Below, in pieces: positions 8,850 to 58,271 of a stretch of DNA of 64,000 nucleotides. The position numbers were made by a program, and so were the translations under genes. Position 1 is the first letter of the stretch; each line of letters begins with the position of its first letter. The notes under the pieces are model-generated. The model searched no databases and was not told the origin of the DNA. It saw only the letters and a program-made list of their open reading frames with translations. This DNA comes from Candidatus Latescibacterota bacterium (GTDB lineage Bacteria > Latescibacterota > UBA2968). The stretch lies in assembly GCA_965208125.1 (NCBI GenBank), contig OZ242320.1, positions 2,400,001-2,464,000 of the forward strand, read 5' to 3'.

Positions 8850-8928
<79 letters not shown>

Positions 8929-8935
8929 AAATCAG

Positions 8936-8970
8936 AAAGCCCGTCAATCGGTGGTGATCGACGGGCTTTT
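8936..8970 (+). terminator. Intrinsic terminator after tRNA-Pro
   Basis: AAAGCCCGTC...GACGGGCTTTT stem followed by T-rich tract. Confidence 0.8.
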
Positions 8971-8973
8971 GTT

Positions 8974-9053
8974 TGAAGTTGCCCCGTTTTGATGGAGTAT
9001 TTAGGGCTTGGGTTCAAGCCTGCGAAGGTACCCGCCGAAACGGATCAAGTCCA
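8974..9053. mobile_element. Mini-element E1 with IS3-like terminal inverted repeats (MITE)
   Basis: Left TGAAGTTGCCCCGTTTTGATGGAGTA; right end (rc) TGGACTTGATCCGTTTCGGCGGGTAC; 80 bp. Confidence 0.75.
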
Positions 9054-9164
9054 AAATTAGGATCAGAAAATGACCAAGAAAAACCCAAAAGAAAAAAGAG
9101 ACCCATTAGTGCAGTCTCTGGTGTGGTAATTGTTGCCAAAATAGCGACTCGACAAATCAAAAAA

Positions 9165-9710
9165 TCATCTCAGAAGTAATTTTACTTCTGGATACTTTCC
9201 TTTTTCCCTCCAAAGCACATTGTTCTGGTGCGACATTAGAATTAACTCCTGTCCATCCGAAAATATCCAGCTTGATGCAAAATCCCCTCTGTTTATTCCA
9301 TCGCTGGCATGATCAAACTTTATAGTGCTATGTGGTGGACCTATATCTTTTTCAAATACGATGGAGTATTTTTCAAAAACTCCAAAGCATGCGGCCTTTC
9401 CTCTGCACAATAAAAATTCTCCATCGCGTTTTAAATCAGACAATACAATGCCCATAGAAGAATCGTGCAGAAAATATGGCTCTGATGGTTTCTGATATAC
9501 TGGTTTAGTATATTCGGAAGAAGAGGAATCATAAGAGATAGACGAATACCTTTGTGATCTATCAATCCAATAATCCAGAGCAATCAAAACTATTATGCCC
9601 AAGACACATAAAAAACCAAACAACTTCTGTTTCCATTCAACATGATATTGTTTTTCCTTGGTATGGCCCGACTTTTTTCCTTCATTGGAACTTGTATCGC
9701 GCGAACTCAT
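9165..9710 (-). CDS. Hypothetical single-TM protein (low-GC cargo)
   Basis: 181-aa ORF, one TM helix, no recognised motif. Confidence 0.55.
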   Translation of the reverse strand: MSSRDTSSNEGKKSGHTKEKQYHVEWKQKLFGFLCVLGIIVLIALDYWIDRSQRYSSISYDSSSSEYTKPVYQKPSEPYFLHDSSMGIVLSDLKRDGEFLLCRGKAACFGVFEKYSIVFEKDIGPPHSTIKFDHASDGINRGDFASSWIFSDGQELILMSHQNNVLWREKGKYPEVKLLLR

Positions 9711-10116
9711 GGGTAGTTTCCTTTGTTTCGCAGATGCAGACCGTGTGCTTTTTCCAAGTGACTTTGGTGAGTCTTACTGGATAAGCACACGATCTTTTAT
9801 TAGTAATGCTATAAAGCTAAATTGTCATAATGATATGTCAAGTTAAATTTGGGTAGTGTCTCAGTTTGAAATTTCAGGGCATATCTGCCTTTAGACTGGA
9901 TAGCCTAAAAACCGCATCTTTGTGCAATGCAGATAGGCTATCAAAAGCAGATTTGATTCTCGCAAGGTCGCTTTTCATTTCCCCATTCTCATCATGTGGT
10001 CCGCCAATTTATTACTCATTTCTGGATATTTGGACTCGCGGTATCTGACACCATCGGCAATTATTTCTGCCACCCGCGCGGCTTATTCTGCCCTCGTTTT
10101 TTGAAGTTCCTTCAGA

Positions 10117-10234
10117 TGAAATTATCCCGCTTGAGTGGATAGTGTAGAAGTTTCAATCCCATCATCCTGTGCCATTGGTTTTTCATTGGTGATGAGTGAT
10201 TTATGATGTTATCCATCAAAATGGGTCAAGTCCA
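10117..10234. mobile_element. Mini-element E2 with IS3-like TIRs
   Basis: Left TGAAATTATCCCGCTTGAGTGGATAG; right (rc) TGGACTTGACCCATTTTGATGGATAA; 118 bp. Confidence 0.7.
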
Positions 10235-10247
10235 ATCAAACAAATAC

Positions 10248-10276
10248 TTGAACATAGTCATAAAAGGCTTTATAGT
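10248..10276 (+). promoter_or_regulatory. Putative sigma70 promoter of the nuclease-like cassette
   Basis: TTGAAC-N17-TATAGT. Confidence 0.5.
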
Positions 10277-10371
10277 GCGCGTTTCCTGAAATTGATGGAC
10301 AAACATGATGGTACTCCCTATTCCATACGATTTGAGTTGTTTACCTGAAAATAAAAAAGGAGAAAAATAAA

Positions 10372-11355
10372 ATGGCTGACGTACACTATTTCCCGCGTTA
10401 CACACAACGCGAAAATTTTGTAACCAACAATACCTTGTTGCTGTTCCAGCGATTATACGACTACAATCTGCGAAAATTCGGTAAATTCCTAATGGAACTC
10501 AACGAGGACCTCGATTCGTTTTCAGGTCTTTTGGGATTACACATAAACCAGCAAATAAGAACCGGGAACAGCGTACCGGATGGCTTTATCGTCCAGCATC
10601 CGTTAAAAATTGTTATCGAAACAAAAATACATGAAGGGTTCGACGGATCCCAACTTCGTCGGCACTTGAACACGAACCAGGAACATCCCGATCTGGTCTT
10701 GATGTTGTTAAGCCCTCGGGGAGAACCAAGCGAGAAACTGGTCGCAAGCCTGCGGAATGATAAGGCAAAGATTGTTGTTACTTCATTTCGAGATATAATT
10801 GGTGCTGCCAGGAGGTGTTTATCAGAACACGATGAAGATATGAATGCCCTTGTAGATGATTACGAAGCATTTTGTAGCGAGTCTAAGTTGCTACCTCGGG
10901 ACGATTATACGCTATTCATCCCCCCTTGTGGTGAATCGTATGAGGTGAACGCTCGACTAAAACTCTATTGGTGTCCGGACCACCGAAATATAAGAAAGTC
11001 AAAATATCTGGGTATCTACACCAGTAAAGCAGTGCGGCATATTGGCCGTATAAGGGAGGTGGTCAGTTGCTACTTGAACGAGGATGGAACGCTGAATGTC
11101 ATTGAGGGAGAGCCTAACAGCGACGAGCAAGAGCGAATCAAGATGGCTATGCAAGAAGGAGGGGTTAGCCAAGGTCATAAATTCTTTTTGTGTTCTGAAA
11201 TGGAGGAGACATTTTTTCAGAAGCAGACGAAAGGGGGAATGCAAAGGCATCGCTACTTTGACCTGGGGGCAGATGTGCTTGAGGGAGATGAAAATGTACC
11301 GAATAGTCTTGCGAAACTCGCGGAGGAGCTCAAGAAAATCCCTTGGCCATTCTGA
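10372..11355 (+). CDS. Hypothetical protein with PD-(D/E)XK nuclease-like motif
   Basis: VPDGFI...IVIETK...QLRRH motif; AAGGAG RBS. Confidence 0.65.
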   Translation: MADVHYFPRYTQRENFVTNNTLLLFQRLYDYNLRKFGKFLMELNEDLDSFSGLLGLHINQQIRTGNSVPDGFIVQHPLKIVIETKIHEGFDGSQLRRHLNTNQEHPDLVLMLLSPRGEPSEKLVASLRNDKAKIVVTSFRDIIGAARRCLSEHDEDMNALVDDYEAFCSESKLLPRDDYTLFIPPCGESYEVNARLKLYWCPDHRNIRKSKYLGIYTSKAVRHIGRIREVVSCYLNEDGTLNVIEGEPNSDEQERIKMAMQEGGVSQGHKFFLCSEMEETFFQKQTKGGMQRHRYFDLGADVLEGDENVPNSLAKLAEELKKIPWPF

Positions 11356-11399
11356 TACAGGAAGTTCAGGTTAGTTGCGACTTTTAAGGAGGTATAAAT

Positions 11400-11543
11400 A
11401 TGATTGAGAACTGCGAAAAGTATAAAAGATTCATCAAAGCAGGTGGTGTTGGCTCAAGAGACAAAGTTGCTGATTCAATAAAGTCTTATGTGTCATATTT
11501 GAACAGCGTGTCAAGGCATTTGGATGGAGTTCCCCCGCTTTGA
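11400..11543 (+). pseudogene. 5' gene fragment truncated by element E3
   Basis: Strong AAGGAGG RBS; MIENCEKYKRFIKAGGVGSRDKVADSIKSYVSYLNSVSRHLD runs into E3 at 11525 and stops at 11543. Confidence 0.6.
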
Positions 11544-11616
11544 TGGAGTATTTAGGGCTTGGATTGATGCAGCTTTCTAACTACTGGTAAGTACCCACCG
11601 AAAAGGGGCAACTCCA
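11525..11616. mobile_element. Mini-element E3 with IS3-like TIRs
   Basis: Left TGGAGTTCCCCCGCTTTGATGGAGTA; right (rc) TGGAGTTGCCCCTTTTCGGTGGGTAC; shares TTTGATGGAGTATTTAGGGCTTGG with E1; 92 bp. Confidence 0.8.
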
Positions 11617-11646
11617 ACTTTGCTCAAGAATAAAATTTGTTGACTT

Positions 11647-11666
11647 TGTTCTTAAATTTGAGAACA
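11647..11666. promoter_or_regulatory. Palindromic operator upstream of the TA operon
   Basis: TGTTCTTAAATTTGAGAACA near-perfect palindrome next to TTGACT (11640-11645). Confidence 0.6.
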
Positions 11667-11711
11667 TTAAAATAAATATAGAAAGCTTCACTCAGGAAAT
11701 AACGATACTCA

Positions 11712-12089
11712 ATGCCGGAAATCCAGGTCATATTCTATCAAGAAACGAATGGAAACGTTCCAGTTCTCGCATGGCTTGATACACTCCTTCCTAAAGTCAA
11801 AGCCAAATGCATCGTGAAAATTGAACGACTCCAAAAATTAGGTCATGAACTTCGGAGGCCCGAATCTGATTACTTGAGAGACGACATCTATGAGCTTCGC
11901 ATCGCTTATCGCGGCATTCAATATCGGCTTCTTTACTTTTTTTGGGGACGTAATGCCACTGTGATCTCACACGGTATTGTTAAAGAACAGCGCGTGCCTT
12001 CCACAGAAATTAACCTCGCAATTCAAAGAAAAAGAAACTTTGAACAGAACCCCGGGCGACACACCTATTCGCTGGAGAATGATTCATGA
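11712..12089 (+). CDS. RelE/ParE/HigB-family type II toxin (Gp49-like)
   Basis: LRRPESDYLRDDIYELRI...YRLLYFF...ISHGIVK. Confidence 0.9.
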   Translation: MPEIQVIFYQETNGNVPVLAWLDTLLPKVKAKCIVKIERLQKLGHELRRPESDYLRDDIYELRIAYRGIQYRLLYFFWGRNATVISHGIVKEQRVPSTEINLAIQRKRNFEQNPGRHTYSLENDS

Positions 12090-12409
12090 AAACACAAAAG
12101 ACTACCGATGCCGTAGCGATTCTTCACAAACGCTATGTTGAAGGCGACCAGGAAATGGAAGCCCTGTTAAAAAGAGAAAGAATACACGCCGAAGTTGCTG
12201 CCCAACTCTACCAGATCAGAATCGAGTCTGGACTGTCCCAACGAGAATTGGCAAAAAAGGTTGGGACATCGGCATCTGTCATCTGCAGACTTGAAAATGC
12301 AGACTACGAAGGACACTCACTTGCTATGCTACGGCGAATCGCCGCCGCTTTACATAAACAGATTCGAATTTCTTTTCATCCTCTGCAAGAAACAGTATCG
12401 TCTCGCTAA
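12086..12409 (+). CDS. XRE/HigA-like HTH antitoxin
   Basis: GLSQRELAKKVGTSASVICRLENADY; ATGA overlap with toxin. Confidence 0.9.
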   Translation: MKTQKTTDAVAILHKRYVEGDQEMEALLKRERIHAEVAAQLYQIRIESGLSQRELAKKVGTSASVICRLENADYEGHSLAMLRRIAAALHKQIRISFHPLQETVSSR

Positions 12410-12414
12410 ATATC

Positions 12415-12489
12415 TGGACTTGACTCGTTTTAGTGGATAGTGCGGAAAGCACTCTTTATGCTGTTATACACCAAAACGAGTCGAGTCTA
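12415..12489. mobile_element. Mini-element E4 with IS3-like TIRs
   Basis: Left TGGACTTGACTCGTTTTAGTGGATAG; right (rc) TAGACTCGACTCGTTTTGGTGTATAA; 75 bp. Confidence 0.75.
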
Positions 12490-12519
12490 AGGTTAAAGAG
12501 ATATTATCGTCTATTTTAC

Positions 12520-14403
12520 TCACCTATCCAGTCCTGATGGCGCAACCTGCTCAGGACAGGCACTTTTTGCTCCTCGACCATTTTCCAATGGCAATGTCAG
12601 TCCAAATGTCGATCCCTTGCCCTGTTCGCTTTCGACATAGACCCGCTCGCCGTGTGCATCCATGATGTGCCGAACAATGGACAAGCCCAGGCCCGTCCCG
12701 CCCATTGCCCGTGAGCGCCCTTTATCGACCCGGTAAAATCGCTCAAAAATGCGATCCATATCTGACAGTGGAACCCCAATACCCGTGTCCTTTACTTCAA
12801 GTGCAATACGGCGCGTGCGGGTCTGATTTTCAATTCCCTCGGGTCTATTGCGACGGTTTTCTCGATCATTTTCCACAGGCTTGAAATCTCGCGTCTGAAT
12901 CCAGATTTTACCCTCTTCAGGCGTGTATTTTACGGCGTTGTCGAGCAAATTGAACAATGCCTGTTCAATGAGCTTGTGATCGCACTGCACCTGCACATTT
13001 TTTTTCGTGTTTATCTCGATGGTAAGGTTTTTTTCTTTTGCCAGTGGGCGTATTTGTCCAACGACGGAATTGATCATCTCATGTAGGGGATAAACGCCTG
13101 TCTCAAGAGGTAGCGCGCCGGATTCTATACGCGACAAATCCAGAATATCTTCTACCAGATTGTGCAAGCGATCCGCATGGGTGTTGATCATTTTTACGAA
13201 TCGCTGTGAGGCTTCCCGGTCGTCTAAGGCGCCGTCTGCCAGCGTGGATGCACATCCTTTAATGGTTGTAAGCGGGGTGCGCAATTCATGGGAAACATTG
13301 GCGACAAAATCTTTGCGAATGCGCTCCAGACGGCGCAATTCCGTGATGTCGTAAAAAATAGTTACAGAACCCGCGATATGATCATCTTGCAAAATAGGTG
13401 CAATCTGTACATCGAAATGGCGTTCTCGGTCGTCTGAGCGGATGAGATCTAAAAATACCGCTTGTCCGGTTTTCAGGGTTTGATCAATTGCATTTTGCAC
13501 ATCCCGATGGCGCACAAGCTCAATGGGCATGCGCCCTTCAATGGCGTCAGACACCCCAAATAGCTTTTCAAATGTCTGATTGCCCATCAGGATGCGCCCA
13601 CTCTGGTCCGTGACCAGAATGGCTTCTGTAATGCTCGTCAAGACGGCTTCTAAACGCGATTTTTCAAGTGTGATTTGTCCGATGTGCGTCTGGACCTGCC
13701 GACGCATGTCGTCTAATGCTGTGCCCAAATCGCGCAATTCTCGCGTGGATCTAACGCGGAGTGTGGGGTGTTTTAATCGTCCCGAAGCAATGTTTTGGAC
13801 GAACCAGATGGCATCTAAAATCGGACGCGAGATATATCGCGAGGTGGCATAAGCCAATAACAGGGCGAGGCATAATCCCAGTATGGATACTATCCATATC
13901 GCCTGTGAAATCAATTGTTTTATATGCGCCATCTCGCGCAAGGGCAGGGCCAATCTCAGGACATAATGTCCATCGCCAATTTCAGGTACTGCCGTTGCGA
14001 CATATAATATTTCGGTATCCAGTGTGTTGCTATAACGCAAGCTACTTCCCCGCCCCTGTTGACGTGCCGCGCTGATTTCTGGATGATCGGTGTGATTCTC
14101 CAGAGCGCTCAGATCGGATGGATCGGTTTCCGAATCGGCCAATACGCGTCCCTGGCTGTTGATCAGCGTTGCACGCACGCCAAAACGCAATCCCACTTCG
14201 TTGATAAGTGGAATGAGTCTCTCGTCGGTATTTGCCACCTCGCTGAGATGCACGCGGGCAAAACGCACCTCGCGCAAAAGTCTCTGCTCGAGATGAGAAA
14301 CCCAAAAGTCGCGTATGGCGCGATCCAGATATAGATGTGCAGATGCCAGTACCAGTACCAGTACAGAAAGACAGGCGAGCATCCATTTCCAGTGCAAACG
14401 CAT
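12520..14403 (-). CDS. phoR: PhoR-like sensor histidine kinase (TM-HAMP-PAS-HisKA-HATPase)
   Basis: RKDFVANVSHELRTPLTTIKG; IFERFYRVDKGRSR..GGTGLGL; start at MRLHWKW. Confidence 0.8.
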   Translation of the reverse strand: MRLHWKWMLACLSVLVLVLASAHLYLDRAIRDFWVSHLEQRLLREVRFARVHLSEVANTDERLIPLINEVGLRFGVRATLINSQGRVLADSETDPSDLSALENHTDHPEISAARQQGRGSSLRYSNTLDTEILYVATAVPEIGDGHYVLRLALPLREMAHIKQLISQAIWIVSILGLCLALLLAYATSRYISRPILDAIWFVQNIASGRLKHPTLRVRSTRELRDLGTALDDMRRQVQTHIGQITLEKSRLEAVLTSITEAILVTDQSGRILMGNQTFEKLFGVSDAIEGRMPIELVRHRDVQNAIDQTLKTGQAVFLDLIRSDDRERHFDVQIAPILQDDHIAGSVTIFYDITELRRLERIRKDFVANVSHELRTPLTTIKGCASTLADGALDDREASQRFVKMINTHADRLHNLVEDILDLSRIESGALPLETGVYPLHEMINSVVGQIRPLAKEKNLTIEINTKKNVQVQCDHKLIEQALFNLLDNAVKYTPEEGKIWIQTRDFKPVENDRENRRNRPEGIENQTRTRRIALEVKDTGIGVPLSDMDRIFERFYRVDKGRSRAMGGTGLGLSIVRHIMDAHGERVYVESEQGKGSTFGLTLPLENGRGAKSACPEQVAPSGLDR

Positions 14404-14404
14404 T

Positions 14405-15097
14405 CTATGCTCTTTCTCGACGGAAGCGATAGCCCACGCCCCGCACGGTTTCAATCCATTCGCCTGACTCACCGAGTTTTTCGCGCAACCGCCTGATGTG
14501 TGTATCGACCGTGCGCCCATAGCCGCTGTATTCATACCCCCATACTGTGTCGAGTAAGTCGTCGCGCGTTTGCACGCGCCCGCGGCGTTCGATCAGGGTC
14601 AGGAGCAACTTAAATTCCGTGCCCGTCAATTCCAATGGGTCACCGTCTAACAGAGCCTGATGTGCGGCTTTATCGATAGATATCGGTCCCGTATGTAGCC
14701 AGGCATCAGTGGTCGATTGCGAACTGTCCTGACTGCGCCGCAGAATCGCCTGCGCCCGCAAGACGAGTTCGCGCGGGGAAAAGGGTTTGACAACGTAGTC
14801 ATCGGCTCCTAATTCCAATCCCACAATGCGATCTACTTCCTCTTTGCGCGCGGTCAACATCAAGATGGGTATGTGACGGGTTCGAGCATCTTGTTTTAAT
14901 TGCCGGCACATATCCAGTCCGTCGATGCCCGGCAGCATCAGGTCCAGTATGATCAAATCTGGCAGAACCTCCTGAACGCTCTGGAGAGCACGCTCGGCAT
15001 CTTCTGCTGTTTCAACATCTAACCCAGCCTGATCGAGGTTGTAGCGCACCATTTCCAAAATATCAGGTTCGTCTTCAACCACCAGAATTTTGTTCAT
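14405..15097 (-). CDS. phoB: PhoB/OmpR-family response regulator
   Basis: KILVVEDE, LDLMLPG, GADDYVVKPFS, RTVDTHIRRLREKL; adjacent to phoR-like gene. Confidence 0.8.
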   Translation of the reverse strand: MNKILVVEDEPDILEMVRYNLDQAGLDVETAEDAERALQSVQEVLPDLIILDLMLPGIDGLDMCRQLKQDARTRHIPILMLTARKEEVDRIVGLELGADDYVVKPFSPRELVLRAQAILRRSQDSSQSTTDAWLHTGPISIDKAAHQALLDGDPLELTGTEFKLLLTLIERRGRVQTRDDLLDTVWGYEYSGYGRTVDTHIRRLREKLGESGEWIETVRGVGYRFRRERA

Positions 15098-58100: not shown

Positions 58101-58170
58101 TTTTAAGTGCATTTAAGTGCATTTAAGTGCATTTAAGTGCATTTAAGTGCATTTAAGTGCATTTAAGTGG
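58101..58170. repeat. 10-bp tandem repeat (ATTTAAGTGC) x7
   Basis: Five perfect units plus two single-mismatch end units. Confidence 0.95.
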
Positions 58171-58271
58171 CGTTACCCCGCTTTAGTGAATATGCGTGAA
58201 GGTTCTACTCAGGCACTGATCGTTTGGGAGGTGGATTCAAACTCTGTTATCGGCTAAAAGGATCAAGTATA
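58168..58271. mobile_element. Mini-element E5 with degenerate IS3-like TIRs
   Basis: Left TGGCGTTACCCCGCTTTAGTGAATAT; right (rc) TATACTTGATCCTTTTAGCCGATAAC. Confidence 0.6.

Follow-up and report, generated by a model that had tools for sequence, protein, structure and literature searches.

A decayed tRNA-Pro island with remnants of IS3-family insertion sequences between its cargo modules in a Latescibacterota genome

Introduction

Directly downstream of the tRNA-Pro(CGG) gene of a Candidatus Latescibacterota genome (G000; a 5.75-Mb single contig with 51% GC), a block of low-GC DNA carries three cargo segments that are bounded by four short elements, here termed E1 to E4. The block is part of a 64,000-nt window (G000:C1:2400001-2464000), which is the whole stretch of DNA analyzed and to which positions refer unless a genome is named. 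Judged by comparison of related sequences, the block is an integrase-less, decayed mobile island that begins directly after the CCA end of the tRNA, and the ends of E1 to E4 are assigned to two related IS3-family insertion sequences (ISs), termed IS-A and IS-B. In the explanation toward which we lean, E1 to E4 would be scars of IS3 activity that helped to assemble and trim the island, with the element tips acting as preferred points of breakage and joining.

The comparison set comprised 20 congeners, giving 21 genus genomes together with G000. Records of the close relatives are titled “MAG: Candidatus Latescibacterota bacterium,” and the public sequencing runs that contain the stretch are mostly labeled as sponge or marine metagenomes.

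Results

The block is bounded by a tRNA-linked island

Twelve of the 20 congeners exhibit an empty site, in which a 45-nt native terminator comes after the tRNA and the stop codon of a kinase gene (phoR-like) comes next. Homology between G000 and these genomes ends at position 8926, which places the start of the island immediately behind the CCA end of the tRNA. Its order is tRNA-Pro, hairpin, E1, a membrane-protein gene, E2, a 327-aa gene with a 47-aa open reading frame (ORF), E3, a toxin-antitoxin (TA) module, E4 and the 3' end of the kinase gene (Table 1). The block extends from 8927 to about 12589, i.e., about 100 bp beyond E4 and into the last codons of the phoR-like gene, and its GC content is 0.38-0.46 compared to 0.51 for the genome. 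An initial annotation, made from the letters of the window alone, had let the AT-rich region start and end at the elements and had taken the hairpin before E1 for the tRNA-Pro terminator; neither assignment holds, as the region reaches from the tRNA to beyond E4 and the hairpin belongs to the island.

The hairpin start is common to G000 and five congeners (G015, G003, G005, G014, and G004), while three further congeners show a different arrangement at the tRNA-Pro site. In all five occupied congeners the hairpin is followed by a conserved arm, which is absent in G000: relative to these genomes, about 30 nt of arm directly beside E1 are missing. The far border is retained in G015 and G014, where the 5' end of a small gene is followed by “...GGGCGACCA” and then by the native terminator. 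The right-border repeat in these two genomes, CGACCA, duplicates the six bases with which the tRNA ends. At this border about 445 bp have been lost from G000, including the small gene, which carries a ParB helix-turn-helix (HTH) domain, the tRNA-end repeat, the native terminator and the last kinase codons. The kinase ORF (PAS/HisKA/HATPase, 12520-14535) consequently has neither its native last codons nor its own stop and continues for about 20 additional codons in island DNA (12520-12589); its relatives terminate two residues beyond a shared “LTLP.”

Insertion at a tRNA 3' end and an empty site in relatives, both expected of a tRNA-linked island, are found here, and the far-border copy of the tRNA end, deleted in G000, is present in G015 and G014 as well as at tRNA-Met and tRNA-Gln in other genomes (see below). 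Because of the empty sites, the shared hairpin and the far-border repeats, the block is considered a decayed member of a family of islands linked to tRNA 3' ends. It is this family, and not the mini-elements, that sets the outer limits of the block. In agreement with the initial annotation, no transposase or integrase ORF was found between 8927 and 12589. An Rfam search of the island and three related loci returned tRNAs only.

Mini-elements and their IS3-family parents

All four elements described in the initial annotation are present at the positions given there (Table 1). Each is an imperfect palindrome with imperfect terminal inverted repeats of about 25 nt. The four are directly oriented with respect to each other, and E1 to E3 lie in the opposite orientation to their parents. 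On a matrix constructed from the eight ends, each of them scores 25-35 bits, and this matrix finds 59 sites of at least 16 bits in the genome. To control for circularity, a second matrix was trained only on the ends of autonomous copies in other genomes. This independent matrix likewise recovers eight of eight ends. With a threshold of 16 bits it finds 58 sites in the genome and 5 in a shuffled one; with a threshold of 20 bits, 43 sites remain in the genome and none in the shuffle. The claim that the eight ends are of one shared type was borne out by both matrices.

E1 to E4 form the largest cluster of such ends in G000, with eight ends in 3516 bp in the pattern + - + - + - + - (Poisson P about 6e-17); the next largest comprises six ends in 7.2 kb. 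Across the genus, IS3-type ends occur in 17 of the 21 genomes at 17-49 per genome, and a reversed control gave none. The majority of IS3 ends in G000 stand alone and are located outside islands; within the window, a lone end with no nearby partner is found at 58168-58193 (20.7 bits on the first matrix). An enrichment of end clusters downstream of tRNAs was considered and rejected: of 37 G000 clusters, 4 have a tRNA no more than 10 kb upstream of them (binomial P = 0.21, not significant), and only the two largest arrays are tRNA-linked.

IS-A (1256 bp; 1283 bp in G019) and IS-B (1253 bp) have the same TG...CA termini as E1 to E4. In both, orfA and orfB lie in frames 0 and -1 and overlap by about 70 nt. 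The OrfB proteins reach 347 and 346.7 bits on NF033516 (“IS3 family transposase,” cut-off 160), in keeping with the initial attribution of the ends to the IS3 family. A simple pattern search of the parents for the slippery motifs A6G, A7, TTTAAAG, and AAAAAAC, the only ones tried, found none. The sole full-length copy in G000 (genome positions 2167030-2168400, 1371 bp) has an orfA with HTH_Tnp_1 and an orfB (HTH_21, rve) that is split into two frames; the domains rve, rve_2, rve_3, and HTH_21 were recognized on this broken copy. The OrfB fragment has matches in 16 of the 20 congeners, and many of these matches retain an open frame of about 305-321 aa. The scan for an autonomous IS3 that the initial annotation had suggested thus retrieved intact copies in congeners and only the frameshifted copy in G000. 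G015 contains ten IS-B copies (L081-L090) that are 99.5-100% identical. Some of their flanks pair across copies, e.g., GGA to the left of L090 and to the right of L082, which suggests recombination between copies.

On the basis of their alignment to the parents (Table 1), E1 and E3 are assigned as internal-deletion derivatives of IS-A and E2 as a derivative of IS-B, while E4 retains ends only, its left end being IS-B-like. The two subtypes of the initial annotation (E1/E3 and E2/E4) and the non-autonomous nature of the elements, which contain no ORFs, are thereby upheld. E1 to E4 are short (75-118 bp), non-coding and equipped with parental terminal repeats, as is expected of miniature inverted-repeat transposable elements (MITEs). 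E2 has one other copy in G000 (4001185-4001303, 84%), and E2-like sequences were listed in 16 congeners. No second full-length copy of E1, E3 or E4 was found in G000, and a 92% identical copy of E4 occupies the same place in G015.

Target-site duplications were read by eye from printed flanks. As the initial annotation had noted, a 3-4-bp duplication is absent at all four of E1 to E4 (0/4); matching flanks were also not found around any pair of E elements. Among full-length copies, 7 of 25 show a duplication: 5 of the 15 IS-A-type copies (IS-A/IS-C; 14 congener copies and the frameshifted one of G000) have 3-4 bp, and 2 of the 10 IS-B copies have 3 bp (in G015). Only one of 19 paired elements examined carries a duplication (CTTT), namely a 614-bp derivative at 3094619-3095232 of G000, and none was seen at nine paired elements in arrays of G019 and G020.

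Homology breaks at element tips

The alignment of the tRNA-Pro to phoR interval across genomes, proposed in the initial annotation, shows that homology does break at element tips, but the outer limits of the island lie elsewhere. Homology of G000 with G014, G003, G005, and G004 goes no further than the first base of E1 (8975). With G015, it covers 69 nt of E1 and begins again at the E4 tip, and the interior between these points is wholly different.

The TA module is 93-98% identical in five genomes (G013, G020, G007, G003, and G019), where it occupies three or four other loci, and in all five its homology ends at one pair of positions, give or take a few bases. On the right, the module adjoins four different IS3 left ends (G000, G013, G020, and G003), three of them at the identical base and one 4 nt further in, and on the left it adjoins IS3 right ends in G000, G013, and G020. 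The limits of the module are unchanged in G019 and G007, although neither junction has an IS3 end there, and these two genomes have only the TA stretch in common with each other. Degenerate IS3 ends at the G019 and G007 junctions were sought and rejected (best of 48 positions p = 3.8e-4, not significant after correction). The right TA junction in G007 falls within 9 nt of microhomology to a different repeated element: the adjoining 227 bp on this side of the module (L035, reverse-strand 2292-2518) form the end portion of a larger repeat whose right end is defined (cf. L112-L117) and for which Rfam has no family.

In G015, E1 is fused to a second truncated end, as if tip-to-tip ends had lost the center of their palindrome, and G019 contains a junction in which a right and a left terminal inverted repeat (IRR and IRL) are separated by 3 nt, as in an IS3-type circle or dimer junction. 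In addition, a second array in G000, the cluster of six ends mentioned above, lies downstream of tRNA-Asn and a hairpin variant, and G019 has a similar array behind tRNA-Gln, hairpin and arm. The tRNA-Asn array (3999354-4006547, L065) contains Fic, DUF6557, and Hypoth_Ymh genes, a 968-aa methylase-like ORF and several unknown ORFs; its end pair at 3999354-4001369 encloses two ORFs, like a passenger-carrying element.

Contigs assembled from public runs stop or branch at 11617-11619, 11525, 9053, and 8975. Run X19 has a low-depth 3547-bp contig identical to 9013-12559, run X22 has the TA stretch on a much deeper contig than other cargo, and a loose end at 12589 in the latter run carries the native terminator. 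These observations fit the presence of many contexts in the population and are not independent proof. From the genome comparisons, IS3 ends are probably rearrangement joints.

Cargo modules

The cargo modules are in mixed orientation and have their own promoters. The 181-aa predicted membrane protein of the first segment matched no Pfam or PADLOC family, and among 31 family genomes the segment has only two short matches (78-80%), both in G012. The 327-aa protein of the second segment has 152 homologues at E <=1e-5, some of them named by their sources as restriction endonuclease or PD-(D/E)XK nuclease, and close homologues (81-96%) in other assemblies. It is without a match in Pfam, NCBIfam or PADLOC; the nuclease label of the initial annotation has only a PD...ExK-like motif and homologue names as its basis. 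A search of metagenome contigs found no relative of the protein, and a search of genome contigs found only the one in G020. There, the gene copy is cut off (88% DNA identity), has other limits and lies with no IS3 ends nearby. The 47-aa ORF has no full-length relative in 30 other family genomes, and its first 41 residues have no relative in these genomes.

In the third segment, the toxin matches Gp49 (PF05973, 65.1 bits) and the antitoxin HTH_3 (PF01381, 34.5 bits), and the two genes overlap by 4 nt. The module is therefore predicted to be a HigB/HigA-like type II TA system, with a toxin of the RelE superfamily and an overlapping HTH antitoxin. A 34-nt stretch of its promoter gave no match in metagenome contigs and three in genome contigs, all in genomes already compared.

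Table 1. Features of the tRNA-Pro island and its surroundings in the window.
Feature	Position	Strand	Remarks
tRNA-Pro(CGG)	8850-8926	+	ARAGORN; 100% identity in 20/20 congeners
Island left end	8927-8973	+	Conserved hairpin at 8936-8969; not the native tRNA-Pro terminator, 12/20 congeners carry another terminator
E1	8974-9053 (80 bp)	- (reversed relative to parent)	Left 49 nt match IS-A 1207-1256 (44/50); right 34 nt match IS-A 1-34 (29/34)
Cargo segment 1	9054-10116	.	Gene for 181-aa predicted membrane protein, 9165-9710 (minus strand); remainder non-coding
E2	10117-10234 (118 bp)	-	Predicted MITE from IS-B; left 69 nt match IS-B 1185-1253 (56/69)
Cargo segment 2	10235-11524	+	327-aa PD-(D/E)xK-like gene, 10372-11355; 47-aa ORF, 11400-11543, running into E3
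E3	11525-11616 (92 bp)	-	Left 41 nt match IS-A 1216-1256 (35/41); right 44 nt match IS-A 1-45 (38/45)
Cargo segment 3, TA module	11617-12414 (798 bp)	+	Toxin 11712-12089; antitoxin 12086-12409; promoter-like region
E4	12415-12489 (75 bp)	.	Little beyond two IS3-type ends; left 23 nt match IS-B left end (22/23)
Residual island DNA	12490-12589	.	74-81% match to G015, which continues for another 445 bp including “...GGGCGACCA” and the native terminator

A recurrent island family with a hairpin and a ParB-HTH gene

The island family has a left end composed of the conserved hairpin and then the conserved arm, and in fuller copies a right end composed of the small ParB-HTH gene and a 6-9-nt copy of a tRNA 3' end. 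The hairpin has 58 occurrences in 15 of the 21 genus genomes, compared to none for a reversed control; among these, the 34-nt hairpin often stands without an adjoining tRNA. In G000, a close copy is located directly after three tRNA genes (Pro and two Met) and a diverged variant after a fourth, tRNA-Asn; besides the copy in the window, the hairpin positions in this genome are 2205474, 5302592, and about 4008290. The small gene carries the ParB HTH domain PF17762 and was found in 14 of the 21 genus genomes, with no match in G000 for the query used. A derivation of the arm from an old IS3 end was considered and rejected, since its local alignment score of 29 compares to 22.5 +/- 3.3 for shuffled sequences and 16 of 300 shuffles were as good.

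At tRNA-Met, G004 and G014 exhibit tandem units, in which the small gene and “GGGCTACTA” (matching the tRNA-Met 3' end) are followed by the next hairpin. This hairpin-bounded tandem accretion (G004:5015000-5027000, L109; G014:655000-674999, L108) shows “GGGCTACTA” with the next hairpin at two internal junctions in G004 and one in G014, each preceded by a ParB-HTH gene of 151-191 aa or its 5' remnant. The cargo of these tandem islands includes leucine-rich repeat (LRR) and very large surface-type proteins, and no integrase was seen in them. The tRNA-Gln island of G019 starts with hairpin and arm and ends with the ParB-HTH gene and the border “GGGCAACCA.” This island, at tRNA-Gln(TTG) (3438000-3455400; L105, L118), is bordered at its end by DNA whose place in G000 is downstream of tRNA-Gln(CTG), an arrangement that suggests a chromosomal rearrangement between two tRNA-linked islands.

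The island ORFs of G015, G014, G004, G005, G003, and G019 were inspected by their first residues, and no integrase was recognized; on this question, Pfam was applied to only 10 ORFs, taken from the islands at tRNA-Met (G004 and G014) and at tRNA-Gln (G019). Beyond defence genes, the cargo of sister islands includes response regulator, LRR, Cache, and dehydrogenase-cadherin proteins.

Two further repeat families were seen. A family of 160-250 bp (e.g., G019 L038:1245-1496 and G000 97561-103137) is present in numerous copies in each genome; these often form same-strand clusters with a spacing of 0.7-3 kb, and the repeat terminates in a hairpin and an AT-rich tail. A repeat of about 260 bp (G015 L013 1167-1430, many loci) forms inverted flanks of a response-regulator gene in G003, is widespread in the genus and is possibly another family of non-autonomous elements.

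Discussion

Assembly of the island

If E1 to E4 are scars of IS3 activity, as we are somewhat inclined to think, the modules would have been brought together and trimmed by IS3 transposase in ancestors or donors with active copies. Candidate events would include insertion beside resident ends, composite movement, end-adjacent deletions, and breakage and rejoining at tips; the loss of the arm beside E1 in G000 would resemble an end-adjacent deletion. Such joining events would account for cargo that is flush with the tips and for the lack of target duplications. As the only full-length copy is frameshifted, the process would be dead in G000, and the array would be a fossil mosaic rather than a working capture system.

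Several observations weigh against this explanation. The limits of the TA module are kept in G019 and G007, which share only this stretch and carry no IS3 end at its junctions, so that these limits do not need IS3 ends. The cut-off copy of the nuclease-like gene in G020 is likewise remote from any IS3 end. Cargo in relatives that lack the elements, named in the initial annotation as evidence against its proposal, was therefore found in part. The cargo of sister islands is not limited to defence, and proximity of end clusters to tRNAs does not exceed chance. Since duplications are commonly lost in full-length copies too, their absence at E1 to E4 is weak evidence for any special route. No rearrangement event was observed directly, the public runs being seen as assembled contigs (Logan). 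Finally, all genomes compared are metagenome assemblies, in which some repeat junctions could be assembly chimeras.

An alternative is passive accumulation, in which the island was built by other means and the elements are ordinary insertions or decay products that survived in AT-rich spacers and had no role in cargo assembly. The solitary position of most IS3 ends in G000 outside islands, the general loss of duplications in this IS group, the occurrence of the TA module and the nuclease-like gene elsewhere without ends, and the CTTT duplication of the 614-bp derivative, which indicates that simple insertion occurs, all fit such a scenario, and the tRNA-linked ends of the island owe nothing to IS3. 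However, eight ends in 3.5 kb are far beyond chance, duplications are missing from all four elements here and from all nine paired elements in the G019 and G020 arrays, and the same TA end is abutted by four different IS3 ends, three of them at one base. The tip-to-tip remnant in G015 and the IRR-3 nt-IRL junction in G019 further indicate that ends attract ends. Passive accumulation is regarded as a serious, though less likely, alternative. A different proposal, made by us for two cooperating layers, combines an integrase-less element (hairpin, arm, and ParB-HTH gene) that docks at several tRNA 3' ends with IS3 ends that serve as reusable joints, by insertion targeted to ends or by breaking and rejoining at tips, and swap modules such as the 798-bp TA module between loci and species; we regard it as doubtful.

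The initial annotation went further and proposed an integron-like capture array; in its general form, a dedicated integron-like or IS26-like platform (targeted conservative) would use IS3-type ends as recombination sites for the serial capture of defence and TA cassettes. Directly oriented elements without duplications do punctuate the cargo, the same architecture recurs after tRNA-Asn in G000 and tRNA-Gln in G019, and G000 and G015 share E1 and E4 while their interiors differ. Targeted insertion by IS911 and IS26 arrays formed by targeted conservative insertion are precedents (PMC7986276, PMC4196232). Nevertheless, we consider such a platform improbable, and the integron-like array of the initial annotation is not sustained: G000 has no integron integrase and lacks an intact transposase, the joints are a heterogeneous set of remnants from two or more ISs rather than one repeated site, E1, E3, and E4 have no other full-length copy in the genome, sister islands carry cargo other than defence genes, and the TA module also occurs without ends; in addition, most ends are solitary and few clusters (4/37) are near a tRNA. 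Still further removed is the idea that the elements are palindromic sites of another recombinase (Xer/pdif-like modules or attC-like hairpins) with a secondary likeness to IS3. In Acinetobacter plasmids, modules bounded by short inverted sites carry TA genes, and each of E1 to E4 is an imperfect palindrome. Yet E1 to E3 align to complete IS3-family ends well beyond the terminal repeats, Rfam finds only tRNA, and no attC-type core pair was apparent by eye (no formal scan), so that we give this idea hardly any credence.

Comparison with known systems

E1 to E4 resemble MITE-like derivatives of the IS3 family in their TG/CA termini and imperfect repeats of about 25 nt, in parents with orfA/orfB and an rve/DDE OrfB, in the duplications at 7 of 25 full-length copies and in the IRR-3 nt-IRL junction. 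They differ in that E1, E3, and E4 are single-copy here and not amplified, in the absence of duplications at E1 to E4, and in parents for which a simple search found no A6G-type motif.

Targeted insertion by IS911, itself of the IS3 family, and arrays formed by IS26 through targeted conservative insertion are treated in PMC7986276, and the formation of IS26 pseudo-compound arrays from translocatable units by the same route in PMC4196232. As in IS26 arrays, cargo is interspersed here with directly oriented ends of one kind, internal duplications are lacking and segment limits coincide with tips. In contrast, the parents belong to IS3 (copy-out-paste-in) and not IS6, and the joints are dead remnants of 75-118 bp without ORFs instead of complete IS6-family copies. 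According to PMC4133298, miniature inverted-repeat elements that derive from Tn3 (TIMEs) mobilize foreign modules, and their composites give 5-6-bp duplications. Miniature elements with parental repeats that flank, and could mobilize, unrelated modules including TA or replication genes are common to both systems. Unlike TIME composites, no pair of E elements is surrounded by a duplication, and the TA module occurs elsewhere with other ends or none.

Genomic islands linked to tRNAs include integrase-less remnants flanked by att-like repeats, a situation captured by the concept of cis-mobilizable elements. Insertion at a tRNA 3' end, a tRNA-end repeat on the far side, tandem accretion, atypical GC content and an empty site in relatives are shared with such islands. 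In contrast, the repeat is only 6-9 nt long, no integrase was found in the copies examined, and the conserved parts are the hairpin, the arm and the ParB-HTH gene. Moreover, the same ends serve tRNA-Pro, tRNA-Met, tRNA-Gln, and probably tRNA-Asn, where only a left-end-like spacer and the hairpin variant are seen.

With integrons, the block has in common a row of small modules, mostly promoter-carrying or single-operon, that are separated by imperfect palindromes and lie beside a fixed chromosomal site. It differs in the lack of IntI, in palindromes that are IS3 remnants and not attC sites, and in the mixed orientation and own promoters of the modules. The best G000 match to the integron integrase profile TIGR02249 reaches 103.9 bits compared to a cut-off of 265; matches of this kind resemble ordinary tyrosine recombinases and also occur in 14 of 14 control genomes. 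Searches of the literature gave no account of such arrays from Latescibacterota, and the text of a paper on Latescibacterota of sponges (PMC12993501) contains “transpos” 0 times.

Implications

The tRNA-Pro island offers a worked example, from an uncultured phylum, of small accessory modules (TA, nuclease-like, and methylase-like) that are packed beside tRNA genes with IS remnants at the seams. The hairpin/ParB-HTH family, which occurs at several tRNAs without a visible integrase, constitutes a separate lead. If two layers did cooperate, the system would be a transposase-driven analogue of an integron, similar to IS26 yet built on the IS3 family. Should the seams prove to be active joints, the IS3 family would join IS26 as a builder of cargo arrays, and such activity would help to explain the shuffling of defence and symbiosis genes among sponge symbionts.

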